A stretch of DNA of 64,000 nucleotides from Escherichia coli (GTDB taxonomy: Bacteria; Pseudomonadota; Gammaproteobacteria; Enterobacterales; Enterobacteriaceae): assembly GCF_002854065.1 (NCBI RefSeq), contig NZ_CP024147.1, one strand, 5' to 3'. The position numbers and the translations under genes are program-made. Each line of letters opens with the position of its first letter. Position 1 is the stretch's first letter. Of this stretch, positions 2,096-51,100 are shown piece after piece. The notes below the pieces were generated by a model. It did no database searches. It was given only the letters and a program-made list of their open reading frames with translations, and was not told where the DNA came from.

Positions 2096-3496
2096 ATGAC
2101 CTCTACACCGATTACTACCGCTGATATCGCTAAAGGTAAAATTGACGATGCGTTATCTGTACGGGAAAAAATAGGCTACGGCCTGGGTGACGCAGGCGGC
2201 ACCGTAATAACTTGCCTGATCATGAATTTTCTCACCTTTTTCTACACCGACGTTTTTGGATTAACTCCGGCGCTGGTTGGCACGCTGTTTATTGCACTGC
2301 GCGTGTTTGATGCCATCTCCGACCCGGTGATGGGCGTCATTGCCGACCGGACGCAAAGTCGCTGGGGGCGCTTTCGTCCGTGGCAGCTATGGATTGCCAT
2401 TCCCATCGGCATTATCGGCATCCTGACGTTCACCGTGCCAGATGCCAGCATGGGAGTAAAAATCGCCTGGGCGTTCGGTACTTACCTGCTCCTTTCAGTC
2501 GGTTATACCGCCATCAACGTACCGTACTGCGCGCTGATCAACACCATGACCACCCGCCACAATGAAGTGATCTCCTGCCAGTCCTGGCGATTCGTTCTCT
2601 GTGGCGTAGCGGGATTTCTGGTTTCGGTAGGCTTACCGTGGATGGTAGATCTCTTCGGTCAGGGTAATGCCGCGCGCGGCTATCAATTGGGCGTCGGCGT
2701 GCTGTGCGCCATTGCCGTGGTGATGTTCCTGTGCTGTTTTTTCTGGGTTCGTGAACGGGTGCCACTCTCCACAATGGGGAAATTTACCCTGCGCGAACAT
2801 CTTGCCGGGCTGCGGAACAACGACCAACTGCTGCTGATGCTGGTCATGTCTTTCCTGCTGATTAACGTCTTTAACATTCGCGGCGGTGGGTATATGTACT
2901 TCATTACCTACGTCTTACAAGGCAGTACGGGCTACACGTCGCTGTTCTTCACCATGGTCACCTTCGCCTCCATTATCGGCTCGGTGATTGTCAGCCCGTT
3001 AACGCGGCGTTTCGATACCGTCAAAATTTACTACTACACCAACCTGCTCCTCGCTGCGCTGGCAGTGTTGATGTGGTTCCTGCCCTCCGGCCCGGCTTAT
3101 CAAACGCTGTGGCTGGCGGTGATCCTCGGTAATGGCGTAATTCTTGGCTTCACATTGCCACTGCACTTCTCATTGATGGCCTTTGCCGATGACTACGGCG
3201 AGTGGAAAACCCGCGTACGTTCTTCCGGCATGAACTTCGCCTTCAATCTGTTTTTCATCAAGCTGGCCTGGGCCTCCAGCGCCGGGATCATCAGCCTGCT
3301 GTTTATTTTTGTCGCCTACCAGCCTGGCGTGGAAAACCAGACCGCCAGTTCGCTTGGCGGGATCGCGGCGATGGAAACATTACTGCCTGCGCTATTCCAC
3401 CTGCTGCTGGCAGGGGCGATCCGCTTTTGCAAACTCAATCATCCTATGATGTCACGCATAGCTACCGACCTGCGTCAGCGTCATGTACAGCCTTAA
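2096..3496 (+). CDS. GPH-family (glycoside-pentoside-hexuronide:cation symporter) MFS sugar transporter
   Basis: 466-aa ORF, hydrophobic throughout; N-terminal GYGLGDAGG...[21 protein letters not shown] motif is typical of MelB/YicJ-type symporters. Confidence 0.85.
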
Positions 3497-3506
3497 GGAG
3501 CACAAG

Positions 3507-5477
3507 ATGAACATTTCGGAAGTCGATCTGCATAAACTGACGGTCAGCGATCCGTTCCTCGGTCAGTACCAACAACTGGTCCGCGACGTGGTGATTCCTT
3601 ATCAGTGGGATGCTTTGAACGATCGTATCCCAGAAGCGGAACCCAGCCATGCGATTGAAAACTTTCGCATTGCCGCCGGACTTCAGGAGGGTGAATTTTA
3701 CGGGATGGTGTTTCAGGACAGCGACGTCGCCAAATGGCTGGAAGCAGTAGCCTGGTCGCTGTGCCAGAAGCCGGACGCCGAACTGGAAAAAACCGCCGAC
3801 GAGGTGATTGAACTGGTCGCCTCCGCCCAGTGCGAAGACGGCTATCTCAATACTTACTTTACGGTAAAAGCACCCGAAGAACGCTGGAGCAATCTGGCGG
3901 AGTGTCATGAACTTTACTGCGCAGGTCATCTGATTGAAGCCGGAGTCGCCTTCTTCCAGGCCACGGGAAAACGGCGCTTGCTGGGGGTCGTTTGCCGCCT
4001 GGCCGATCATATCGACAGCGTATTTGGTCCAGATGAAAGTAAGTTACACGGTTATCCTGGTCACCCGGAAATTGAACTGGCACTAATGCGCCTGTATGAA
4101 GTGACTGAAGAGCCGCGCTACCTGGCGCTGACGAACTATTTTGTCGAACAGCGTGGTGCGCAACCGCACTATTACGACCAGGAATATGAAAAGCGCGGGC
4201 AGACATCGCACTGGCACACCTACGGCCCGGCATGGATGGTGAAAGACAAAGCCTACAGCCAGGCACATTTGCCCCTTGCGCAACAGCAAACCGCCATCGG
4301 TCACGCGGTACGTTTTGTCTATCTGATGACCGGCGTCGCGCATCTCGCGCGTTTAAGTCACGATGACAGCAAGCGTCAGGACTGCCTGCGGCTGTGGAAC
4401 AATATGGCCCAGCGTCAGTTATATATTACCGGCGGCATTGGCTCGCAAAGCAGCGGCGAAGCGTTCACTAGCGATTACGATCTGCCGAATGACACGGTAT
4501 ACGCTGAAAGTTGCGCCTCCATCGGCCTGATGATGTTTGCCCGACGAATGCTGGAAATGGAAGGCGACAGTCAATATGCCGATGTGATGGAGCGCGCACT
4601 GTACAACACCGTGCTCGGCGGCATGGCGCTGGATGGCAAACATTTCTTCTATGTGAATCCGCTGGAAGTACATCCAAAATCGCTGAAATTCAACCATATC
4701 TACGATCACGTTAAACCGATCCGCCAGCGTTGGTTTGGCTGCGCTTGTTGTCCGCCAAATATCGCCCGCGTGCTGACCTCGATTGGTCATTATCTCTACA
4801 CGCCGCGTGAAGATGCGTTGTATATCAACATATACGCAGGAAACAGCATGGAAGTGCCGGTAGAAAATGGCACGCTGCGCCTGCGGGTTAGCGGGAACTA
4901 TCCGTGGCAGGAGCAGGTGACGATTGCGGTTGAATCGCCCCAGCCGGTACGTCATACGCTGGCTTTACGTCTGCCGGACTGGTGCACACAGCCGCAGATC
5001 ATATTGAATGGGGAAGAGGTCGAGCAGGATATTCGTAAAGGGTATTTGCACATTACCCGCGAATGGCAGGAGGGCGATACGCTGAATCTGACTTTGCCGA
5101 TGCCGGTACGCCGCGTTTACGGTAACCCGCTGGTGCGTCACGTCGCCGGAAAAGTGGCGATTCAGCGCGGCCCGCTGGTGTATTGCCTGGAACAGGCCGA
5201 CAACGGCGAGTCACTGCATAATCTGTGGCTGCCCACCGATGCGCCATTTACGACATTTGAAGGCAAGGGATTGTTTAGCCATAAGATCTTAATCCAGGCA
5301 CCGGGTTACCGGTATGAACAGAGCAATCCAGAGCAGCAACCGCTGTGGCATTACGACAGCGCGCCAGCCAAACGCCAGACGCAAACTCTGACCTTTATCC
5401 CATGGTTTAGCTGGGCCAACCGGGGTGAAGGCGAAATGCGGATCTGGGTGAATGAGGAAAAGCATTGCCATCCGTAG
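3507..5477 (+). CDS. glycoside hydrolase family 127 (DUF1680, beta-L-arabinofuranosidase-like)
   Basis: Start set at ATG 3507, preceded by AAGGAG; 656 aa; Cys-rich WFGCACCPPN motif resembles the GH127 catalytic/zinc site; lies 10 bp after the transporter stop, so probably co-transcribed. Confidence 0.75.
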   Translation: MNISEVDLHKLTVSDPFLGQYQQLVRDVVIPYQWDALNDRIPEAEPSHAIENFRIAAGLQEGEFYGMVFQDSDVAKWLEAVAWSLCQKPDAELEKTADEVIELVASAQCEDGYLNTYFTVKAPEERWSNLAECHELYCAGHLIEAGVAFFQATGKRRLLGVVCRLADHIDSVFGPDESKLHGYPGHPEIELALMRLYEVTEEPRYLALTNYFVEQRGAQPHYYDQEYEKRGQTSHWHTYGPAWMVKDKAYSQAHLPLAQQQTAIGHAVRFVYLMTGVAHLARLSHDDSKRQDCLRLWNNMAQRQLYITGGIGSQSSGEAFTSDYDLPNDTVYAESCASIGLMMFARRMLEMEGDSQYADVMERALYNTVLGGMALDGKHFFYVNPLEVHPKSLKFNHIYDHVKPIRQRWFGCACCPPNIARVLTSIGHYLYTPREDALYINIYAGNSMEVPVENGTLRLRVSGNYPWQEQVTIAVESPQPVRHTLALRLPDWCTQPQIILNGEEVEQDIRKGYLHITREWQEGDTLNLTLPMPVRRVYGNPLVRHVAGKVAIQRGPLVYCLEQADNGESLHNLWLPTDAPFTTFEGKGLFSHKILIQAPGYRYEQSNPEQQPLWHYDSAPAKRQTQTLTFIPWFSWANRGEGEMRIWVNEEKHCHP

Positions 5478-6470: not shown

Positions 6471-7445
6471 ATGACAAAATTACAACTTAAGTACCGGGAG
6501 TTAAAAATTATCTCGGTAATCGCTGCCAGTGAAAATATCAGCCATGCTGCGACTGTACTTGGCATCGCACAGGCCAACGTCAGCAAATACCTTGCTGATT
6601 TTGAATCAAAAGTGGGTTTAAAAGTCTTTGACCGAACCACCCGGCAGCTGATGCTCACACCTTTTGGTACCGCGCTGTTACCGTACATCAACGACATGCT
6701 GGACAGAAACGAGCAGCTTAATAATTTTATTGCAGATTATAAGCATGAGAAACGTGGTCGGGTCACCATCTACGCCCCAACCGGCATAATTACCTATTTA
6801 TCCAAACATGTAATCGATAAAATTAAAGATATCGGTGATATAACCTTATCGCTAAAAACCTGCAATCTTGAGCGTAATGCCTTTTATGAAGGCGTCGAAT
6901 TTCCTGATGATTGTGATGTTTTAATCAGCTACGCTCCACCAAAAGATGAATCGCTGGTTGCCAGTTTTATTACACAATATGCCGTAACCGCTTATGCCAG
7001 CCAGCGCTATCTTGAGAAACATCCTATTAGCCGTCCTGACGAACTCGAACATCACTCCTGTATTTTGATCGACTCGATGATGATCGACGACGCGAATATC
7101 TGGCGCTTCAACGTCGCCGGGAGTAAAGAGGTGCGGGATTATCGCGTGAAGGGAAATTACGTTTGCGACAACACGCAATCTGCGCTGGAGCTGGCACGAA
7201 ATCACCTGGGGATTGTGTTTGCGCCAGACAAAAGTGTGCAGAGAGATCTGCAAGACGGCACGCTGGTGCCCTGCTTTCAGCACCCGTATGAATGGTGGCT
7301 GGATCTGGTGGCTATCTTCCGTAAACGGGAATACCAGCCCTGGCGGGTCCAGTATGTGCTGGATGAAATGCTGCGTGAAATTCGCCACCAGCTTGCTCAG
7401 TCGCAGCAACTGCGGCCTGAACAAGCGGCGGAAAGCGAAGATTAA
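6471..7445 (+). CDS. yiaU: LysR-family transcriptional regulator
   Basis: 324-aa ORF; N-terminal HTH ([23 protein letters not shown]); divergent from yiaT. Confidence 0.85.
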
Positions 7446-9451: not shown

Positions 9452-10990
9452 TCAGAACAGCCCCAACGGTTTATCTGAGTAGCTCACCAGCAGGCACTTG
9501 GTTTGCTGGTAATGCTCCAGCATCATCTTGTGGGTTTCGCGTCCAATGCCTGATTGTTTGTAGCCGCCAAACGCCGCATGTGCCGGGTAAGCGTGATAAC
9601 AGTTGGTCCACACGCGCCCGGCCTGAATGCCGCGCCCCATCTTATAGGCCAGATTACCGTTGCGGCTCCAGACGCCTGCGCCCAGGCCATATTGCGTATC
9701 GTTCGCCAGCTCCAGCGCTTCTTCCATCGTTTTGAAGGTGGTCACCGCCAGCACCGGGCCAAAAATCTCTTCCTGGAACACCCGCATATTGTTCTGACCA
9801 AACAGAATCGTCGGTTCAAGGTAGTAGCCGTCTTTCAGTTCGCCTTCCAGCAGCTTGCGCCGCCCGCCGGTGAGCACGTCTGCGCCCTCTTTTTTACCGA
9901 TATCAATGTAGTTGAGGATGGTTTCCAGTTGCCCGTGAGAAACCTGCGCACCCATTTGCGTCACGCTGTCGAGTGGGTTACCGCTGCGAATGCTTTCGAC
10001 ACGGCGGATGGCGCGTTCCATAAAGCGTTCGTAGATTGACTCCTGCACTAAGGCACGACTCGGACAGGTGCAAACTTCGCCCTGGTTAAAGGCAAACAGT
10101 GCAAAGCCTTCCAGCGCTTTATCGAAAAAGGCATCTTCTTCATCCATCACATCAGCAAAGAAGATATTTGGCGACTTACCGCCCAACTCCAGCGTCACCG
10201 GAATAATGTTTTGCGTTGCGTATTGCATAATTTGTTGGCCCACTTCCGTTGAGCCGGTAAACGCCACTTTGGCGATGCGTTTCGAGGTCGCCAGATATTC
10301 GCCAATTTCCCCACCTGCGCCATTGACCACGTTCACCACGCCCGGCGGCAGTAAATCACCGACAATTTCCATTAGCAGCAGTACAGAAAGCGGGGTAAGA
10401 CGTGCGGGTTTCAGCACCACACAGTTGCCCGCCGCCAGCGCGGGAGCCATTTTCCAGCTCGCCATCAGCAGCGGGAAGTTCCACGGGATAATCTGCCCCA
10501 CCACGCCTAACGGTTCATGGAAATGATAGGCCACGGTTTCGCTATCAACTTCACTGATCCCACCTTCCTGCGCCCGAATACACGAGGCGAAATAGCGGAA
10601 ATGGTCAATCGCCAGCGGTACATCCGCAGCACTGGTTTCGCGAATGGGTTTGCCGTTATCCCAGGTTTCAGCTGTCGCTAACAGCTCGAGGTTTTGTTCC
10701 ATTCGATCGGCAATCTTAAACAGAATCGCCGCGCGATCCTGCACCGAGGTGTGCGCCCATTTATCTTTCACTTTGTGCGCAGCATCCAGCGCCAGATCGA
10801 TGTCTCGTTTGCCCGAAGACGCCACTTCGCACAGCAGCTGCCCGGTCACCGGCGTCAGGTTCTGGTAATACTCACCATCGGCAGGGGCTACCCATTCGCC
10901 GCCAATAAAGTTGTCATAGCGGTTTTTTAACTTGAGGGGGAAACCATACTCGCCGGGCTTAATCTGTGCTGAAGGGGGATTATTGGTCAT
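9452..10990 (-). CDS. aldB: NADP-dependent aldehyde dehydrogenase B
   Basis: Start set at ATG 10990 ([17 protein letters not shown]...), giving 512 aa; aldehyde dehydrogenase motifs (ELGGKSP, VCTCPSR); the track ORF over-extends upstream. Confidence 0.9.
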
Positions 10991-11154: not shown

Positions 11155-12167
11155 TTACATTGCGGCGCGATAAATCGCCACAATTTCTTCGTGAGTTGCC
11201 TGGATCGGGTTAGTAAAGCCACAGGCATCTTTCAGGGCATTAGTCGCCAGAACCGCGAAATCTTCTTCTTTCACGTTCAGGTCGCGTAGGCCTGCCGGGA
11301 TATCCACTTTCTTCGCCAGTTCACGGATGGCGTTAATGCAGGCTTCAGCACCTTCCGCGTCGTTTTTACCTGTCACGTTCACGCCCATTGCAGCGGCACA
11401 GTCACGCAGACGTGCAGCGGCGACTTTGCTGTTGAATACCTGAACATGCGGCAGCAGAACGGCGTTACATACACCGTGTGGCAGGTTGTAGAAACCGCCC
11501 AGCTGGTGCGCCATCGCATGAACATAACCCAGAGAAGCATTATTGAACGCCATACCGGCGAGGAACTGGGCATAAGCCATTGCTTCACGCGCTTTCGCAT
11601 TACTGCCATCTTCAACGGCTAACGGCAGGTTTTCGGCAATCATGGTCACGGCTTTCAGTGCACAAGCGTCAGTGATCGGCGTGGCGGCAATAGAAACATA
11701 CGCTTCGATAGCGTGCGTTAAGGCATCCATACCCGTTGCGGCGGTCAGTGACTTCGGCATACCAATCATCAGAGAGGAGTCATTGACAGAAAGCAGCGGA
11801 GTGACATGTTTATCAACAATCGCCATTTTGATATGACGCGCTTCGTCAGTGATGATGCAGAAACGGGTCATTTCAGAGGCCGTACCCGCCGTGGTATTGA
11901 TGGCGATCATCGGCAGCTGCGGTTTTGCAGAGCGGTCAACGCCTTCGTAATCGCGAATATCGCCGCCATTGGCTGCCACCAGCGCAATACCTTTTGCGCA
12001 GTCGTGCGGAGAACCACCGCCTAAGGAAATCACGCTATCGCAATTATTTTCTTTAAGTAATTTCAAACCTGCAGCGACGTTTTCCGTGGTGGGGTTAGGT
12101 TGGGTGCCATCATAAATAATGCTAAAAATATTGCGTTCTTCCAGTGCTTTTTGCACATCGCCCGCCA
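11155..12167 (-). pseudogene. yiaY: iron-containing alcohol dehydrogenase gene, 5'-truncated by IS1
   Basis: Fe-ADH frame (…[20 protein letters not shown]…) reads uninterrupted into the IS1 terminal repeat at 12168; about 45 N-terminal codons and the native promoter are absent. Confidence 0.8.
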
Positions 12168-12182
12168 GGTAATGACTCCAAC

Positions 12183-12686
12183 TTATTGATAGTGTTTTAT
12201 GTTCAGATAATGCCCGATGACTTTGTCATGCAGCTCCACCGATTTTGAGAACGACAGCGACTTCCGTCCCAGCCGTGCCAGGTGCTGCCTCAGATTCAGG
12301 TTATGCCGCTCAATTCGCTGCGTATATCGCTTGCTGATTACGTGCAGCTTTCCCTTCAGGCGGGATTCATACAGCGGCCAGCCATCCGTCATCCATATCA
12401 CCACGTCAAAGGGTGACAGCAGGCTCATAAGACGCCCCAGCGTCGCCATAGTGCGTTCACCGAATACGTGCGCAACAACCGTCTTCCGGAGACTGTCATA
12501 CGCGTAAAACAGCCAGCGCTGGCGCGATTTAGCCCCGACATAGCCCCACTGTTCGTCCATTTCCGCGCAGACGATGACGTCACTGCCCGGCTGTATGCGC
12601 GAGGTTACCGACTGCGGCCTGAGTTTTTTAAGTGACGTAAAATCGTGTTGAGGCCAACGCCCATAATGCGGGCAGTTGCCCGGCAT
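12183..12686 (-). CDS. insB: IS1 InsB (expressed as InsAB' by -1 frameshift)
   Basis: 167-aa [28 protein letters not shown]..., overlapping insA in the -1 frame. Confidence 0.95.
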
Positions 12687-12880
12687 CCAACGCCATTCAT
12701 GGCCATATCAATGATTTTCTGGTGCGTACCGGGTTGAGAAGCGGTGTAAGTGAACTGCAGTTGCCATGTTTTACGGCAGTGAGAGCAGAGATAGCGCTGA
12801 TGTCCGGCGGTGCTTTTGCCGTTACGCACCACCCCGTCAGTAGCTGAACAGGAGGGACAGCTGATAGAAACAGAAGCCAC
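12605..12880 (-). CDS. insA: IS1 InsA
   Basis: 91 aa, [43 protein letters not shown]... Confidence 0.95.
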
Positions 12881-12963
12881 TGGAGCACCTCAAAAACACC
12901 ATCATACACTAAATCAGTAAGTTGGCAGCATCACCTATTATTGTTTAGCAAAATTAATCTAAT

Positions 12964-13007
12964 AAAAAGCACATTGTATTCATTAAACAATGTGCTTTTT
13001 TTAAAAT
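12964..13007. terminator. perfect hairpin, probable bidirectional rho-independent terminator downstream of selB
   Basis: aaaagcacattgt-attcatta-acaatgtgcttttttt: 13-bp perfect stem with an A-tract on one side and T-tract on the other; sits in the 85-bp spacer between the two IS1 copies. Confidence 0.6.
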
Positions 13008-13035
13008 CATAAGAATTTTGGGTAATGACTCCAAC

Positions 13036-13539
13036 TTATTGATAGTGTTTTATGTTCAGATAATGCCCGATGACTTTGTCATGCAGCTCCACCGATTTTG
13101 AGAACGACAGCGACTTCCGTCCCAGCCGTGCCAGGTGCTGCCTCAGATTCAGGTTATGCCGCTCAATTCGCTGCGTATATCGCTTGCTGATTACGTGCAG
13201 CTTTCCCTTCAGGCGGGATTCATACAGCGGCCAGCCATCCGTCATCCATATCACCACGTCAAAGGGTGACAGCAGGCTCATAAGACGCCCCAGCGTCGCC
13301 ATAGTGCGTTCACCGAATACGTGCGCAACAACCGTCTTCCGGAGCCTGTCATACGCGTAAAACAGCCAGCGCTGGCGCGATTTAGCCCCGACGTATCCCC
13401 ACTGTTCGTCCATTTCCGCGCAGACGATGACGTCACTGCCCGGCTGTATGCGCGAGGTTACCGACTGCGGCCTGAGTTTTTTAAATGGCGGAAAATCGTG
13501 TTGAGGCCAACGCCCATAATGCGGGCGGTTGCCCGGCAT
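13036..13539 (-). CDS. insB: IS1 InsB (variant)
   Basis: 167 aa; [21 protein letters not shown]... vs copy 1 [21 protein letters not shown]...; YDRLRKT vs YDSLRKT. Confidence 0.9.
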
Positions 13540-13733
13540 CCAACGCCATTCATGGCCATATCAATGATTTTCTGGTGCGTACCGGGTTGAGAAGCGGTGT
13601 AAGTGAACTGCAGTTGCCATGTTTTACGGCAGTGAGAGCAGAGATAGCGCTGATGTCCGGCAGTGCTTTTGCCGTTACGCACCACCCCATCAGTAGCTGA
13701 ACAGGAGGGACAGCTGATAGAAACAGAAGCCAC
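13458..13733 (-). CDS. insA: IS1 InsA (variant)
   Basis: 91 aa; differs from copy 1 (…NTIFRHLKN… vs …NTILRHLKN…). Confidence 0.9.
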
Positions 13734-13831
13734 TGGAGCACCTCAAAAACACCATCATACACTAAATCAGTAAGTTGGCAGCATCACCGAATTTTGTATT
13801 AATTTATTTTAAAACTTAATTAATCATTTCC

Positions 13832-15676
13832 TTATTTTTCCGGAAATAATAATGCGTCGCGCAATAAATGATCATTTCCACGACGACGCGTAAAGCCAAT
13901 GCGGTCAAAATATTCCAGGATTTGAATCGCCAGTTTTCGCCCAACCCCTAAGCGATCGCGGAAATCCGCCGCGCAGGTTGAACCACATTCCTGATCGAGA
14001 TCGCGGATCATATTGGCAAACTCGACAATCCGATCGTTACGGTAATAACGATCTTTGACGATCGCGGTAATTATCCCCTGTTGGGCCGCCTGGCGTAGCG
14101 TCAGACGCATTGCCTGCTCGTCGGTTCCCGTCTCTTTTGCCAGGTCACGCACCCACCACGGTTCGTCACCAAACAGCGGCTCTGCTTTTTGCCAGATGGC
14201 CTGCTGCTCTTCGCTGAAGCCCGCTTTGTGATCCGGCAGATGCAGCCAACCGTGATGACTGAGGATGTCGCCGCTTTCGCGCATCTTTTCAATCAGCAAC
14301 AGTACCAGCGCTTCATCTTCCATTGGCAACGCCATACGTCGCAGACGTTCGCGCCCAGGACCAGGTTCATCGCGATGTTGCTCATGATAAGTCGCTAATG
14401 TGTCGAGAATTTTCCGCTGCCAGCGGGCGGCAACTGGCGCATTCAACAAGCTATAACCAGCCTGAATATAGCCCGGCTGTTGCAGTAGTTCGCGCATCCC
14501 TTCGCCGTTGAGCTGGCGTGCCCAGGCGAAATCCGCAAGGTTAACCGCTCCGCGTTCCAGATGAACAGATAACGCATCGGCATCGCTCTGCGCCCGTGCA
14601 AGAGACGCCAGCCATTGCAGATATTCCGGCTTACGTTTACCGCGACGCGGCGGGTTAAGCATCACCACACGTGCCCCCGCCAGCGTATTGCGGGCCGAGA
14701 TATCGCGCAACACTAAGCGATCGTTATCCGCCAGCCACAGCGGCGTGTCGAACACCAGCTCGGCAAGGTTATCTTCCAGCAGCGAAACGCGTCCCGTAAC
14801 GTGGCTGGCGGCGTGGTGAATATGCAGCGGCTGCCACTGGGTCAGCGGCGTATGGGTTTGAAGCTCGACAATCACCCGCGTGAACGGCTCTGGCGGCACA
14901 TCGGCAAGCAGCCAGTCGCCACGGTTAATCTGCTCTTTTTCCGCATCCCCCGCGATGTTAAGCGCGATACGCTGGCCGGCATGAGCGGTTTCTGTTGGCT
15001 GGTTTTGTGCATGCAGCGCACGTACACGCATCGGTTTATTTACACCAGTCAGCCATAGTGAATCGCCTACCGTCACTTCCCCGCTTAACGCCGTACCGGT
15101 GACGACCAGCCCGGCACCTTTTACGGTAAATGCGCGGTCGATCGCGAGGCGGAAACTATGTTGGCTGGCGTGTTCACGTTCTGGTAACTGAAGCAGATGC
15201 TCGCGCAGGGCATCAATTCCCCGACCCTCGGTTGCTGCGGTGATAAACAGTTTTGCCTCAGCAAAACCGTATTCCCGCAGCACCTCCTTTACCTGGCGTT
15301 CAACCTCATTAACACGCGCTTCGTCCACGCGATCGGCTTTGGTCAGCGCCACTGTCAGCATCGGGTTACCGGTCAGCTGCAAAATCGCCAGATGCTCACG
15401 GGTCTGTGCCATCACACCGTCATCGCACGCCACCACCAACAGCGCGTGATCGATACCACCAACGCCCGCCAGCATGTTGGAAAGAAACTTTTCATGACCG
15501 GGTACGTCGATAAAACCAGGCACGCGACCATCCGGCTGCGGCCAGTAGGCATAGCCGAGATCGATGGTCATGCCGCGCTTTTTTTCTTCCGGCAGACGAT
15601 CGGCATTTACGCCAGTAATCGCCTGCAATAAGGTTGTTTTGCCGTGGTCAACGTGTCCGGCAGTCGCAATAATCAT
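13832..15676 (-). CDS. selB: selenocysteine-specific translation elongation factor
   Basis: 614-aa ORF; N-terminal GTPase motifs ([24 protein letters not shown]). Confidence 0.95.
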
Positions 15677-17064
15677 TTCAACAACATCTCCAAAAACCGT
15701 TGCTCATCTTCAAGGCAGCGTAAATCCAGCCACAATCGTCCGTCATAAATACGACCAATCACCGGCACTGGCAATTCACGCCAGCGGGCGGCTAATGACT
15801 CAAGGTGGCTACCGCGTCCATCATGGGGTGTAAACGTTAATGCCGCGCTCGGCAGGCGATCAACCGGCAGCGAACCACTGCCAATCTGCGAAAGACATGG
15901 CATAACCTGTACCGCAAACTCCGCGCCGTAATGTGCGGCAAGGGGAGCCTGTAAACGTTGTGCCTGGATTTGAATGACCTCTGCGCTGCGGGTAAGCAGG
16001 CGCAGGGTCGGTAATTTTTCACTCAGAGCTTCAGGGTGTAAATAAAGACGCAACGTGGCTTCCAACGCCGCGAGGGTCATTTTATCCGCGCGTAATGCAC
16101 GCTTCAGCGGGTGGCTTTGCAGGCGGGCGATCATCTCTTTTTTACCAACAATAATTCCTGCCTGCGGCCCGCCTAACAACTTGTCGCCGGAGAAGCTCAC
16201 CAGACTGACGCCCGCCGCAATCAACTCCTGCGGCATTGGCTCTTTCGGCAAACCGTACTGGCTAAGATCGACCAGCGAGCCACTGCCTAAATCAGTCACT
16301 ACGGGAACATCCAGCTCTTTGCCGAGCGCCACCAGTTCAGCTTCGTCTATCGCTTTGGTGAACCCCTGAATGCTGTAGTTACTGGTATGTACTTTCATCA
16401 ACAGTGCGGTATTTTCATTCACCGCCTGACGATAATCATTCGCGTGCGTGCGGTTGGTGGTCCCTACTTCGTGTAGGGTGCAGCCTGCCTGACGCATAAC
16501 ATCGGGAATACGAAACGCGCCGCCAATCTCCACCAGTTCGCCGCGAGATACCACTACCTCTTTCCCGCTGGCAATGGCCGCCAACATCAATAACACCGCC
16601 GCCGCATTGTTATTAACGATACAGGCATCTTCCGCCCCCGTAATACGGCACAGCAACTGCGCCAGCGCACGATCGCGATGTCCGCGTCCGGCGTCGTCCA
16701 GATCGTACTCGAGGGTCACTGGCGAACGCATAGCCTGCGCAACGGCTTCCACCGCGGCTTCCGCCTGTAAAGCTCGCCCAAGGTTGGTATGCAGCACGGT
16801 TCCCGTCAGGTTGATCACCGGACGCAGCGCACTCTGCGCCTCTTTCGTCAACCGGGCATCGACTTCTTGCGCCCAGTTTTCACACCACGCAGGCAGCGTC
16901 TGGCTGCCACGAATCACTTCTCGCGCTTCGTCGAGCATCTGACGCAACAATTCCACCACGCGGGTGTGACCATAAGTATCACGCAAAGAAAGGAAGGAGC
17001 TATCGCGCAATAAGCGATCAATAGCCGGAAGTTGACTATAGAGGGAACGCGTTTCGGTTGTCAT
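15673..17064 (-). CDS. selA: L-seryl-tRNA(Sec) selenium transferase
   Basis: 463-aa ORF; PLP-enzyme signature ([13 protein letters not shown]); 4-bp overlap with selB start. Confidence 0.95.
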
Positions 17065-25897: not shown

Positions 25898-28800
25898 ATG
25901 AACAAAATATTTAAAGTAATCTGGAATCCGGCGACGGGCAGTTATAGCGTTGCCAGCGAAACGGCGAAGAGCCGTGGTAAGAAATCTGGTCGCAGTAAGC
26001 TGTTAATTTCTGCACTGGTTGCGGGTGGAATGTTGTCGTCGTTTGGGGCAAATGCCAGTGCGACACTTGATGGAGGTTCATCTATTGAAGACCCATCAAT
26101 GGGTACTCGCTGGCTTGCAATCGGTGAGGGCGCAAAAGCAACATCCGCGTTACAAGGTGATGGATATACCGTTGCGATAGGGCTTAATGCACTAGCAGAT
26201 GGTCAGGGTAGTCTTGCATTCGGCTACGATACCCACTCATCGGGTGATCGTTCTATCTCTATTGGCCAATATGCTGAATCCGCAGGAAACAGAACCATTG
26301 CTTTCGGTAGTGGGTCCAAGGCAATAGGAGACTATTCGCTTGCATTAGGAGGAACTACCTATACAGGTGGTGACTACTCCATTGCAGTGGGTAGGGATTC
26401 GAGGGTAGAAGACGATGCTGATTACGCCTCCTCTTTTGGTTACGGCGCCAAGGCAGGCGGGGTCTATAGCATGGCATTCGGTTTCGAAACTAAAGCTAAT
26501 GCCGTTGACAGCCTGGCAATGGGACGACTAGCTACAGCCAGTGCAGCAAACGCTATTGCGATAGGTGCAGAGGCTGAAGCCGCTGAAAATGCGATGGCTA
26601 TTGGCAATAATGCGAAGGCAAAAGGGACTAATAGCATGGCAATGGGGTTCGGAAGCCACGCCGATAAAGTCAATACTATCGCATTAGGAAATGGCAGCCA
26701 GGCTCTGGCAGATAATGCAATCGCCATAGGCCAGGGCAACAAAGCTGATGGCGTGGATGCCATCGCTCTGGGTAATGGTAGCCAGTCGAGAGGCTTAAAC
26801 ACCATTGCCTTAGGCACAGCCAGTAATGCAACTGGTGATAAGAGTCTTGCGCTTGGTAGTGATACCACTGCCAACGGTATTAACTCCGTCGCATTGGGTG
26901 CAGGTTCCACTGCGGATTTAGACAATACCGTCTCTGTCGACAATAGTTCATTAAAACGCAAGATCGTTAATGTGAAAAATGGCGCGATCAAGTCTGACAG
27001 TTACGATGCCATTAATGGTTCACAGCTTTATGCCATTAGCGACTCGGTAGCACAAAGGCTTGGGGGAGGATCATCAGTAGATGTTGATGACGGTACTGTT
27101 ACAGCACCAACCTACAATTTAAAAAATGGTAGCAAAAAGAACGTAGGGGCTGCGCTCACTGTACTTGATGAAAACACCCTGCAATGGGACCAAATCAAAG
27201 GCAAATACAGCGCTGCTCATGGTACTAGTAGCCCAACTGCCAGCGTAATCACCGATGTTGCGGATGGCACGATTTCAGCCTCCAGTAAGGAGGCGGTTAA
27301 CGGCTCCCAACTGCAAGCTACCAATGACGATGTTGAGGCCAACACCACCAATATCACCAACCTGACGGATTCCGTTGGTGACCTTCAGGCTGATGCCCTG
27401 CTCTGGAACGAAACTAAAAAGGCATTCAGTGCAGCTCACGGCCAGGATACCACCAGCAAAATCACCAACGTTAAAGATGGCGACCTGACGGCTGGCAGCA
27501 CTGATGCCGTTAACGGCTCTCAGCTGAAAACCACCAACGATGCTGTGGCGACGAATACCACCAATATCGCCAATAACACTTCCAATATTGCCACTAACAC
27601 CACCAACATCTCTAACCTGACTGAGACGGTGACTAACCTTGGTGAAGATGCGCTGAAATGGGATAAGGACAATTGTGTCTTCACGGCAGCTCATGGCACC
27701 GATGCCACCAGCAAAATCACCAATGTTAAAGATGGCGACCTGACGGCTGGCAGCACTGATGCCGTTAACGGCTCTCAGCTGAAAACTACCAACGATGCTG
27801 TGGCGACGAATACCACCAATATCGCCAATAACACTTCCAATATTGCCACTAACTCCACCAACATCTCTAACCTGACTGAGACGGTGACTAATCTTGGTGA
27901 GGATGCTCTGAAATGGGATAAGGACAATGGTGTCTTCACGGCAGCTCACGGCACCGAGGCCACCAGCAAAATCACCAACGTTAAAGATGCCGACCTGACG
28001 GCTGACAGCACCGATGCCGTTAACGGCTCTCAGCTGAAAACCACCAACGATGCCGTGGCGACGAATACCACCAATATCGCCACTAACACTTCCAATATTG
28101 CCACTAACACCACCAACATCTCTAACCTGACTGAGACGGTGACTAACCTTGGTGAAGATGCGCTGAAATGGGATAAGGACAATGGTGTATTCACGGCAGC
28201 TCACGGCACAGAAGCCACCAGCAAAATCACCAACGTTAAAGATGCCGACCTGACGGCTGGCAGCACTGATGCCGTTAACGGCTCCCAGCTGAAAACCACC
28301 AACGATGCTGTGGCGACGAATACCACCAATATTGCCACTAACACCACCAACATCTCTAACCTGACTGAGACGGTGACTAATCTTGGTGAGGATGCGCTGA
28401 AATGGGATAAGGACAATGGTGTATTCACGGCAGCTCATGGCAACAACACCGCCAGCAAAATCACCAATATCCTGGACGGCACAGTCACTGCAACCAGTTC
28501 CGATGCCATTAACGGCAGCCAGCTTTATGACTTAAGCAGCAATATCGCCACCTACTTCGGCGGCAATGCTTCTGTGAATACTGACGGTGTGTTTACCGGT
28601 CCAACCTACAAAATCGGTGAAACAAATTATTATAACGTCGGCGATGCACTGGCTGCGATTAACTCCTCATTTAGCACGTCTCTCGGCGATGCCCTGCTTT
28701 GGGACGCTTCCGTAGATAAATTTAGTGCCAAACACGGTACTAATGGTGACGCAAGCGTGATCACTGATGTCGCAAACGGGGATGTTTCAAGCACAAGCTC

Positions 28801-31111
28801 TGATGCTGTGAACGGCTCGCAACTCTATACCACCAATAAGTACGTCGTAGATGCGCTGGGTGGTGGTGCCGAAGTCAATGCAGACGGCACCATCACTGCG
28901 CCGACGTACACCATTGCTAATGCTGATTACGATAACGTCGGTGATGCCCTGAACGCCATCGACACCACTCTCGATGATGCTCTGCTCTGGGATACGGACG
29001 CCGGTGAAAATGGTGCATTTAGCGCCGCTCACGGAAAAGATAAAACTGCCAGTGTAATCACTAACGTCGCAAACGGTGCAATTTCCTCCACCAGCAGCGA
29101 TGCTGTTAACGGCTCACAACTCTATACTACCAATCAGTACATAGTCGATGCGCTGGGTGGTGACGCAGAAGTTAACGCTGACGGCACCATCACCGCACCG
29201 ACTTACACCATTGCGAATACCGATTACAACAACGTCGGTGACGCCCTGGATGCGCTTGATGATAACGCCCTGCTGTGGGATGAGACTGCCAATGGCGGTG
29301 CAGGAGCCTACAATGCCAGCCATGACGGTAAAGCCAGCATCATCACTAATGTCGCTGATGGCAGTATTAGTGAGGACAGCACCGATGCAGTGAACGGTTC
29401 TCAGTTGAATGCGACGAATATGATGATTGAGCAGAACAGCCAAATCATCAATCAGCTTGCTGGTAATACCGACGCAACCTATATCGAAGAAAATGGCGCT
29501 GGTATCAACTACGTTCGTACTAACGACAACGGTTTAGCCTTTAACGATGCAAGCGCCTCTGGTGTCGGCGCTACAGCTGTAGGTTATAACGCTGTCGCGT
29601 CTGGTGCCAGCAGCGTAGCCATTGGTCAGAACAGCAGCAGCACCGTTGATACCGGTATTGCGCTGGGTAGCAGCTCCGTTTCCAGCCGTGTAATTGCCAA
29701 AGGTTCTCGTGACACTAGCGTAACGGAAAATGGCGTGGTGATTGGTTATGACACCACTGACGGCGAACTGCTAGGTGCATTGTCAATTGGTGATGACGGT
29801 AAATACCGCCAAATCATCAACGTAGCTGATGGTTCAGAAGCCCATGACGCCGTTACGGTTCGTCAGTTGCAGAACGCTATTGGAGCGGTCGCCACTACGC
29901 CAACCAAGTACTTTCACGCCAACTCAACGGCAGAAGACTCACTGGCCGTTGGTGAAGACTCGCTGGCAATGGGTGCGAAAACTGTCGTTAATGGTAATGC
30001 AGGTATTGGTATCGGTTTGAACACTCTGGTTCTGGCTGATGCGATCAACGGCATTGCTATCGGCAGTAACGCACGCGCAAACCATGCAAACAGTATTGCA
30101 ATGGGTAACGGTTCTCAGACCACCCGTGGTGCACAGACTGGCTACACCGCCTACAACATGGACGCACCGCAGAACTCTGTAGGTGAGTTTTCTGTTGGTA
30201 GTGAAGACGGTCAACGTCAGATCACCAACGTCGCAGCTGGTTCAGCGGATACCGATGCGGTTAACGTGGGTCAGTTGAAAGTCACTGATGAGCGCGTAGC
30301 GCAAAATACCCAGAGCATTACTAACCTGAACAATCAGGTCACTAATCTGGATACTCGCGTTACTAATATCGAAAACGGTATTGGCGATATCGTGACCACC
30401 GGTAGCACCAAGTACTTCAAGACCAACACCGATGGCGTAGATGCCAACGCCCAGGGTAAAGATAGCGTTGCGATTGGTTCTGGTTCCATTGCTGCCGCTG
30501 ACAACAGCGTCGCACTGGGTACAGGCTCCGTGGCCAACGAAGAAAACACGATCTCTGTGGGTTCTTCTACCAACCAGCGCCGTATCACCAACGTAGCTGC
30601 CGGTGTTAATGCCACCGATGCGGTTAACGTGTCGCAGCTGAAATCTTCTGAAGCAGGCGGCGTTCGCTACGACACCAAAGCTGATGGCTCTATCGACTAC
30701 AGCAACATCACTCTTGGTGGTGGCAACGGAGGTACGACTCGCATCAGCAACGTTTCCGCAGGTGTGAACAACAACGACGCGGTGAACTACGCGCAGTTGA
30801 AGCAAAGCGTGCAGGAAACAAAGCAATACACCGATCAGCGCATGGTTGAGATGGATAACAAACTGTCTAAAACTGAAAGCAAGTTGAGCGGGGGTATCGC
30901 TTCTGCAATGGCAATGACCGGTCTGCCGCAGGCTTACACTCCAGGTGCCAGCATGGCTTCTATTGGTGGCGGTACTTACAACGGTGAATCGGCAGTTGCT
31001 TTAGGTGTATCGATGGTGAGCGCCAATGGTCGTTGGGTCTACAAATTACAAGGTAGTACCAATAGCCAGGGTGAATACTCCGCCGCACTCGGTGCCGGTA
31101 TTCAGTGGTAA
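25898..31111 (+). CDS. upaG: trimeric autotransporter adhesin (YadA-like; UpaG/EhaG/SadA family)
   Basis: 1737-aa ORF; extended signal peptide [27 protein letters not shown]...; repetitive head/neck/stalk motifs; C-terminal YadA-type anchor (...[15 protein letters not shown]...[38 protein letters not shown]). Position between yibL and lldP fits what I recall for upaG/ehaG/sadA. Confidence 0.85.
27392..28390 (+). repeat. in-frame tandem repeats inside the adhesin gene (255-bp / 85-aa unit)
   Basis: Units start at 27392, 27647, 27902 and 28157 (the last 21 bp shorter); a degenerate fifth starts at 28391. Units are more than 95% identical by eye ([29 protein letters not shown]...TNLGE). Confidence 0.85.
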
Positions 31112-50125: not shown

Positions 50126-51100
50126 ATGCGGGTTTTGATCGTTAAAACATCGTCGATGGGCGATGTTCTCCATACGTTGCCCGCACTCACTGATGCCCAG
50201 CAGGCAATCCCAGGGATTAAATTTGACTGGGTGGTGGAAGAAGGGTTCGCACAGATTCCTTCCTGGCACGCTGCCGTTGAGCGAGTTATTCCTGTGGCAA
50301 TACGTCGCTGGCGTAAAGCCTGGTTCTCGGCCCCCATAAAAGCGGAACGCAAAGCGTTTCGTGAAGCGCTACAAGCAGAGAACTATGACGCAGTTATCGA
50401 CGCTCAGGGGCTGGTAAAAAGCGCGGCGCTGGTGACGCGTCTGGCGCATGGCGTAAAGCATGGCATGGACTGGCAAACCGCTCGCGAACCTTTAGCCAGC
50501 CTGTTTTACAATCGTAAGCATCATATTGCAAAACAGCAGCACGCCGTAGAACGCACCCGCGAACTGTTTGCCAAAAGTTTGGGCTATAGCAAACCGCAAA
50601 CCCAGGGCGATTATGCTATCGCACAGCATTTTCTGACGAACCTGCCTACAGATGCTGGCGAATATGCCGTATTTCTTCATGCGACGACCCGTGATGATAA
50701 ACACTGGCCGGAAGAACACTGGCGAGAATTGATTGGTTTACTGGCTGATTCAGGAATACGGATTAAACTTCCGTGGGGCGCGCCGCATGAGGAAGAACGG
50801 GCGAAACAACTGGCGGAAGGATTTGCTTATGTTGAAGTATTGCCGAAGATGAGTCTGGAAGGCGTTGCCCGCGTGCTGGCCGGGGCTAAATTTGTAGTGT
50901 CGGTGGATACGGGATTAAGCCATTTAACGGCGGCACTGGATAGACCCAATATCACGGTTTATGGACCAACCGATCCGGGATTAATTGGTGGGTATGGGAA
51001 GAATCAAGTAGAGTGTCGTTCTACAAGTATGTCTCTTGCAGATTTGCCAGCTCAAACCGTTTTTCAAAATTTAAATCTTGAAATAATAATCAATAAGTGA
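50126..51100 (+). CDS. waaC: LPS heptosyltransferase I
   Basis: 324-aa ORF, GT9 family; last ~30 residues differ from the K-12 C-terminus as I recall it. Confidence 0.9.
   Translation: MRVLIVKTSSMGDVLHTLPALTDAQQAIPGIKFDWVVEEGFAQIPSWHAAVERVIPVAIRRWRKAWFSAPIKAERKAFREALQAENYDAVIDAQGLVKSAALVTRLAHGVKHGMDWQTAREPLASLFYNRKHHIAKQQHAVERTRELFAKSLGYSKPQTQGDYAIAQHFLTNLPTDAGEYAVFLHATTRDDKHWPEEHWRELIGLLADSGIRIKLPWGAPHEEERAKQLAEGFAYVEVLPKMSLEGVARVLAGAKFVVSVDTGLSHLTAALDRPNITVYGPTDPGLIGGYGKNQVECRSTSMSLADLPAQTVFQNLNLEIIINK

Follow-up and report, generated by a model that had tools for sequence, protein, structure and literature searches.

Two full-length copies of IS1 lie between selB and yiaY in the stretch of E. 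coli DNA that we analyzed (64 kb; we will call it the window). They are arranged head-to-tail, 85 bp apart. Very probably, this locus was struck twice, independently, by two different IS1 alleles: copy 2 is an "IS1B"-type element, and copy 1 is an "IS1A"-type element that is accompanied by the loss of 208 bp. The original prediction described the pair, but it missed that copy 1 lacks a target duplication and comes with the loss of 208 bp that inactivates yiaY, that the hairpin in the spacer is simply native to selAB, and that IS1 repeatedly targets this AT-rich region in E. coli.

The region around the two elements is the aldB-yiaY-selB-selA part of the E. coli chromosome, and the window as a whole spans the yia genes, mtlADR, and lldPRD, up to the waa cluster. 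The neighboring genes aldB (9452-10990), selB (13832-15676), and selA (15673-17064) are all on the minus strand. selB is intact. Its exact 614-amino-acid protein is widespread in E. coli, and it is encoded on many contigs that have no insertion sequence at the locus. A look-up of the exact AldB protein likewise gave only common E. coli contigs. As the reference for the empty site, we used E. coli strain 100416 (NZ_CM128593.1; our loci L005 and L029), which is free of insertion sequences between selB and yiaY. This strain is closely related to the window: there are 17 mismatches between them over 49.9 kb (0.034%).

IS1 elements encode insA and then insB' in the -1 frame. Slippage at an A6C motif yields the fusion protein InsAB', which has zinc finger, helix-turn-helix, and DDE domains. 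Both copies in the window have the size and the ends of IS1: each is 768 bp, and the imperfect inverted repeats of ~23 bp, GGTGATGCTGCCAACTTACTGAT and GGTAATGACTCCAACTTATTGAT, are intact. A search of all 64 kb for the 23-nt left inverted repeat (IRL) gave exactly two matches, versus 0 expected by chance, so this search found no third copy of IS1 in the window. Each copy also has a 91-codon insA, the slippery sequence TTAAAAAAC at IS positions 305-313, and an insB' frame that is open. In both copies, the conceptual frameshift yields an InsAB' of 232 amino acids. With NCBIfam model NF033558 ("IS1 family transposase"), InsAB' from copy 1 scores 243.2 bits and InsAB' from copy 2 scores 243.8 bits, as compared to a cut-off of 100. 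A homologous IS1 from strain CUWW06 (L012) carries the Pfam domains PF03811, PF12759, and PF03400. Also, the InsA and InsB proteins of the two copies are common: each of the four sequences is found on at least 1,000 contigs. In both copies, the coding capacity and the ends are intact.

Copy 2 (13021-13788, minus strand) has its IRL at 13788-13766 (minus strand), its right inverted repeat at 13021-13043, and insA at 13458-13733 (minus strand), followed by the A6C motif and the insB' frame. The octamer GAATTTTG (CAAAATTC on the strand of selB) is present on both sides of copy 2, at 13013-13020 and at 13789-13796. The empty site in strain 100416 has this octamer only once. This shows that the 8-bp duplication is real and rules out coincidence. 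The original prediction had proposed that copy 2 inserted independently, as a simple insertion that duplicated 8 bp of its target, and the comparison to the empty site proves it. The insertion point is 43 bp past the stop codon of selB (from the stop to the end of the IRL). Presumably, copy 2 entered by the usual staggered cut, in intergenic DNA with a GC content of 25%, and this would have left the duplication of GAATTTTG.

Copy 1 (12168-12935, minus strand) is also complete, and its insA (12605-12880, minus strand), its A6C motif, and its insB' are all intact. But no target duplication surrounds it: the flanking sequences are CGCCCGCCA (12159-12167) and TATTATTGT (12936-12944). At the position of copy 1, the ancestral locus has lost 208 bp (5966-6173 of L005; the deletion junction in the window is 12167/12168). 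As compared to the empty site of strain 100416, one end of copy 1 is joined to codon 47 of yiaY. The missing 208 bp comprise 69 bp upstream of yiaY and 139 nt of its coding sequence (46 codons plus 1 nt), and both the ribosome-binding region and the ATG of yiaY fall within them.

What is left of yiaY is a 5'-truncated remnant (11155-12167, minus strand) that matches positions 51-383 of the 383 positions of NF007363. In relatives, the intact gene encodes 383 amino acids. (YiaY is an iron-dependent alcohol dehydrogenase and is annotated as L-threonine dehydrogenase.) With its start codon and 46 codons lost, yiaY is a 5'-truncated pseudogene that was inactivated in association with copy 1. We found no record of the truncated YiaY protein. 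A scan for consensus promoters found nothing convincing for yiaY on its strand. The sole promoter-like matches in the region were CTGCCA-16 nt-TATGAT in each of the IRLs (12901-12928 and 13754-13781, both on the minus strand). These two matches are identical, and their position corresponds to that of the known insA promoter.

IS1 elements are usually flanked by target duplications of 8-9 bp, which copy 2 has (8 bp) and copy 1 does not. The lack of a duplication is a known signature of deletion or recombination after insertion, so it is not evidence against copy 1 being a member of the IS1 family. Both of the routes by which target duplications can be lost, adjacent deletion and recombination between two insertion sequences, have been documented (PMC11708052). 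For copy 1, we lean towards adjacent deletion as the origin of the 208-bp loss: an IS1 that was previously present at one of the junctions would have given rise to a transposase-mediated deletion of the DNA next to it. We favor this route because it requires fewer events and because it is classical for IS1. Indeed, adjacent deletion by IS1 is said to be a classical single-step event, going back to Reif and Saedler in 1975. As with the adjacent deletions that have been described for insertion sequences (PMC11708052), and as with the classical gal deletions of IS1, copy 1 lacks a duplication, 208 bp have been replaced by the element, and one of its ends is joined to new DNA. The difference is that the mechanism for copy 1 is one that we infer: the intermediate, which would be an insertion sequence with its target duplication, was not observed here.

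The other route is that the deletion was made by RecA-dependent recombination between two IS1 copies that had the same orientation and were once 208 bp apart. One of these would have been near codon 47 of yiaY and the other just upstream of the hairpin that we discuss below. We consider this to be the less likely of the two routes. It is a recognized cause of missing target duplications (PMC11708052), and other E. coli strains have IS1 insertions in the same orientation near both of the junctions: those in strains RS571 and E3 are 5-20 bp from the yiaY-side junction, and the one in strain Eco_23-3511 is 16 bp from the intergenic junction. So, the recombination route is not far-fetched. Against it, three insertions in about 300 bp would be required within one lineage. 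Also, copy 1 is identical to a known allele and has no mosaic signature, although a crossover between two identical copies would not leave one. If recombination did form copy 1, then it was the same process that the original prediction foresees for the present pair.

To compare the two copies, we used an ungapped alignment of the full 768 bp. It contains nine mismatches (98.8% identity) and no indels. As originally predicted, the copies are in direct orientation, 85 bp apart, and non-identical, and the predicted coordinates are also correct. The mismatches are at IS positions 100, 127, 262, 298, 301, 304, 393, 396, and 444. The original prediction mentioned two clusters of differences. The first (aagtgacgt versus aaatggcgg) is real and corresponds to positions 298, 301, and 304. 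It was described as lying just after the frameshift site, but this holds on the plus strand only: in the reading direction of the transposase, the cluster is just 5' of the A6C motif (IS 305-313). The second cluster, which was placed around 12500 and 13355, corresponds to positions 393, 396, and 444 and is correct. In the translated frames, 7 of the 9 differences are synonymous, and L81F and S130R are the only changes between the two InsAB' proteins.

Each copy can be matched to a different established allele. Copy 1 is identical (768/768) to an IS1 from plasmid pNDM5_020007 (L002:1501-2268), which PGAP names "IS1A family." Copy 2 belongs with the "IS1B family," and it is one nucleotide away (767/768; C100T, which is synonymous) from the IS1 elements of strains TOK-001 and CUWW06. 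Among the matches listed, the exact sequence of copy 2 is found in one RefSeq record only, and the others are 99.9% identical and are named "IS1B family." The InsA proteins of the two copies even have separate names in UniProt (INSA1_ECOLX and INSA2_ECOLX). These allele names are the labels given by PGAP and UniProt.

Because IS1 is a multi-copy repeat that often confuses assemblers, the pair might be an artefact, with one real IS1 and with a second copy and a spacer that came from mis-joined repeat reads or contigs. Also, the arrangement of IS1-85 bp-IS1 is known from one assembly: we found it in none of 5,426 complete E. coli genomes, nor in GTDB's representative genomes, nor in metagenome contigs. 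Nevertheless, an artefact seems very unlikely. The copies are distinct bona fide alleles, one of which is identical to an element that is known from elsewhere while the other is 1 nt off, and most of their differences are synonymous. All four junctions and the spacer are exactly the native sequence, and the collapse or duplication of repeats during assembly would not yield a correct target duplication along with 85 bp of intact native spacer.

Could the pair instead be a recent tandem duplication of a single IS1, or the remnant of a cointegrate, that later diverged or underwent gene conversion? The two copies are close together and in direct orientation, and their last 324 bp are identical. 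But the divergence between the copies is 1.2%, which is ~35 times the divergence of the flanking DNA from the nearest relative (0.034%). And the nine differences coincide with known polymorphisms between IS1A and IS1B in other genomes. The distinct alleles and the excess divergence imply that there were two separate arrivals; this bears out the original view that these are different variants of IS1 and not a recent duplication. Furthermore, the target duplication brackets copy 2 alone, while a cointegrate would place the duplication outside of the pair, and the repeat of GAATTTTG did not already exist in the sequence of the empty site. The position of the target duplication thus contradicts a tandem duplication or a cointegrate, which we consider to be very improbable.

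The spacer between the two copies (12936-13020) is native DNA from between selB and yiaY, and its 85 bp are 100% identical to strain 100416. The architecture of the pair is formally that of Tn9, with direct repeats of IS1 around a passenger, and tandems of IS1-79 bp-IS1 do occur on NDM-5 plasmids, but the idea that IS1-85 bp-IS1 arrived as one Tn9-like composite transposon, bringing the spacer's hairpin from elsewhere, has a negligible probability and is refuted by the local origin of the spacer, which is colinear with the empty site, and by the lack of an outer duplication (CGCCCGCCA versus GAATTTTG at the outer flanks), and the spacer of the plasmid tandems is unrelated to the spacer in the window.

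As an aside, we found the direct tandems of IS1-79 bp-IS1 repeatedly, mostly on NDM-5/IncF-type plasmids but also on a few chromosomes. For instance, in pNDM5_020007 (L002 1501-3115), the first copy is the same as copy 1 from the window, the second copy differs from copy 1 of the window at 27 sites, and the spacer is AT-rich.

The spacer was originally thought to carry a terminator hairpin, and the hairpin is indeed present, both as an inverted repeat and by its predicted fold. It comprises an A-tract, a 14-bp stem, and a T-tract (12957-13007). When folded on the strand of selB, the arms of the stem are AAAAAGCACAUUGU and ACAAUGUGCUUUUU, and the free energy is -20.1 kcal/mol (z = -4.18). In the empty site, the hairpin begins 52 bp after the stop codon of selB, so it natively belongs to the 3' end of the selAB operon. 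A run of five U's overlaps the 3' arm. A rule-based scanner for consensus terminators did not call this hairpin because its 9-nt loop is too long for the rule. When we compared the spacer to Rfam, no curated family reached the threshold, and there was one sub-threshold match, to a eukaryotic miRNA model, which we attribute to chance. From its structure and its location, the hairpin is probably the intrinsic and bidirectional terminator of the selAB operon.

Since copy 2 is located 43 bp past the stop codon of selB, selB is now separated from this hairpin and is without the native context of its 3' end. Transcripts of selAB would now enter IS1 before they reach the native hairpin.

The original prediction also raised the hazard of recombination between the two copies. 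The longest uninterrupted stretch of identity between them is 324 bp (IS positions 445-768), and the next-longest are 134, 99, and 88 bp. These stretches should be ample for RecA-dependent recombination, so the hazard is a sound expectation from established knowledge. Homologous recombination would lead either to the loss of 853 bp (one IS1 and the spacer with its hairpin) or to the amplification of this unit. Such behavior is known for Tn9 and for the r-determinant of R100; for example, Tn9 loses cat by recombination between its IS1 elements. As in Tn9 and the r-determinant of R100/NR1, a direct pair of IS1 brackets a short segment, and we would expect the segment to be subject to RecA-dependent loss or amplification. 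Unlike in those systems, the passenger is gene-free intergenic DNA (85 bp) of local origin, and instead of inserting as a unit, the pair was built in place by two events, without an outer duplication. A single-IS1 recombinant of the pair was not found among the complete E. coli genomes, but the source lineage is absent from the collections that we searched. The 1.6-kb block of IS1-spacer-IS1 is likely to be unstable: it may collapse or amplify, and it may confuse assemblers.

IS1 has inserted in the selB-yiaY region of other E. coli as well, in at least eight lineages. Within about 350 bp of this locus, there are eight further sites with independent insertions of IS1, and one more insertion is deeper in yiaY; these are from a total of eight strains (L001, L003, L012, and L024-L028). 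To describe these sites, we use the reverse complement of L005, in which the ATG of yiaY is at 3811 and the stop codon of selB is at 4001. The insertion deeper in yiaY is from strain E3 (3216-3224) and is in the inverted orientation. E3 has a second IS1 at 3684-3692, which is close to the insertion in RS571 (3677-3684, with an 8-bp duplication). The element in CUWW06 (3797) is inverted and is associated with a deletion of ~5.3 kb that reaches window position 6599. The insertions in BS90R-A, Eco_23-3511, and 2012EL-2448 are at 3801-3809, 3896-3904, and 3931-3939, respectively. In TOK-001, the insertion (3957) is one base away from the site of copy 2, and yiaN-yiaY are deleted. Finally, ETEC1701 has a 93% identical variant of IS1 inside the 3' end of selB (4022). 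As some of these examples illustrate, several of the insertions accompany deletions of yiaY that extend up to yiaN or yiaU.

Across the 5,426 complete genomes, IS1 is present at the selB-yiaY locus in 12, at nine distinct sites (the window is not counted). In 8 of these 12 genomes, as in the window, yiaY has been interrupted or deleted. Including the two copies in the window, 9 of 11 elements have the same orientation as those in the window, but this bias is not statistically significant (two-sided binomial test, p ~ 0.07). IS1 itself is very common: it is present in 4,970 of the 5,426 genomes, at a median of 11 places in each. Under a crude uniform model, with ~10 copies of IS1 per 5-Mb genome, we would expect to see IS1 within a 400-bp stretch in ~4 of the 5,426 genomes, as compared to the 12 that we observed. 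So, by this crude estimate, the enrichment of IS1 at the locus is modest at most. IS1 prefers AT-rich DNA, and the GC content of the intergenic DNA between selB and yiaY (25%, versus 51-56% in the flanking genes) fits this preference.

A broader reading of this recurrence is that selB-yiaY is a true hot spot for IS1 and that, in several lineages, selection favors losing yiaY through IS1, often along with aldB and neighboring yia genes. We think that this is unlikely. If it were true, then the tandem would be one snapshot of a recurrent and parallel inactivation of genes.

Of the other strains with IS1 at the locus, CUWW06 (NZ_CP182139.1) is related to the window no less closely than strain 100416 is. 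It has a single IS1B-type element, in the inverted orientation, at codon 5 of yiaY (L012 6050-6817). The IS1-associated deletion in CUWW06 removes yiaY, aldB, and the genes up to just upstream of a mipA-family gene, and it is independent of the events in the window. Because strain 100416, CUWW06, and the window belong to one clone, we see three members of a clone with three different states of the locus. This illustrates how quickly IS1 can reshape one AT-rich intergenic region within a clone.

Everything that we observed is classical IS1 biology with catalogued alleles, so this is an already-known type of system and not a new one. The elements have the same length, ends, A6C frameshift, 232-amino-acid InsAB', preference for AT-rich DNA, and association with adjacent deletions as other IS1 elements (of the IS1A/IS1R and IS1B types), and, besides C100T in copy 2, the elements themselves show no difference from them. 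In practice, yiaY should be flagged in the annotation as an IS1-truncated pseudogene; beyond that, the finding is of little importance.

We also noticed a few other differences between the window and related genomes. Some lineages of E. coli have a gene for a 431-amino-acid Fic-family protein between yiaY and aldB (4598-5893 in L015, L016, L018, and L020; 1-626 in L025), and the window lacks this gene. In the annotation of strain 100416, rfaC has a frameshift (L029 12887-13878), and at the corresponding place in the window there is an open reading frame of 324 amino acids (50126-51100). The window also encodes a YadA-like adhesin of 1,737 amino acids (25898-31111). Its gene is 5,214 nt long in the window and 5,277 nt long in strain 100416. 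This is a 63-bp difference in the number of repeats, at about 27339-28470 of the window. The region is internally repetitive, and the repeats are 80-92% identical to one another.
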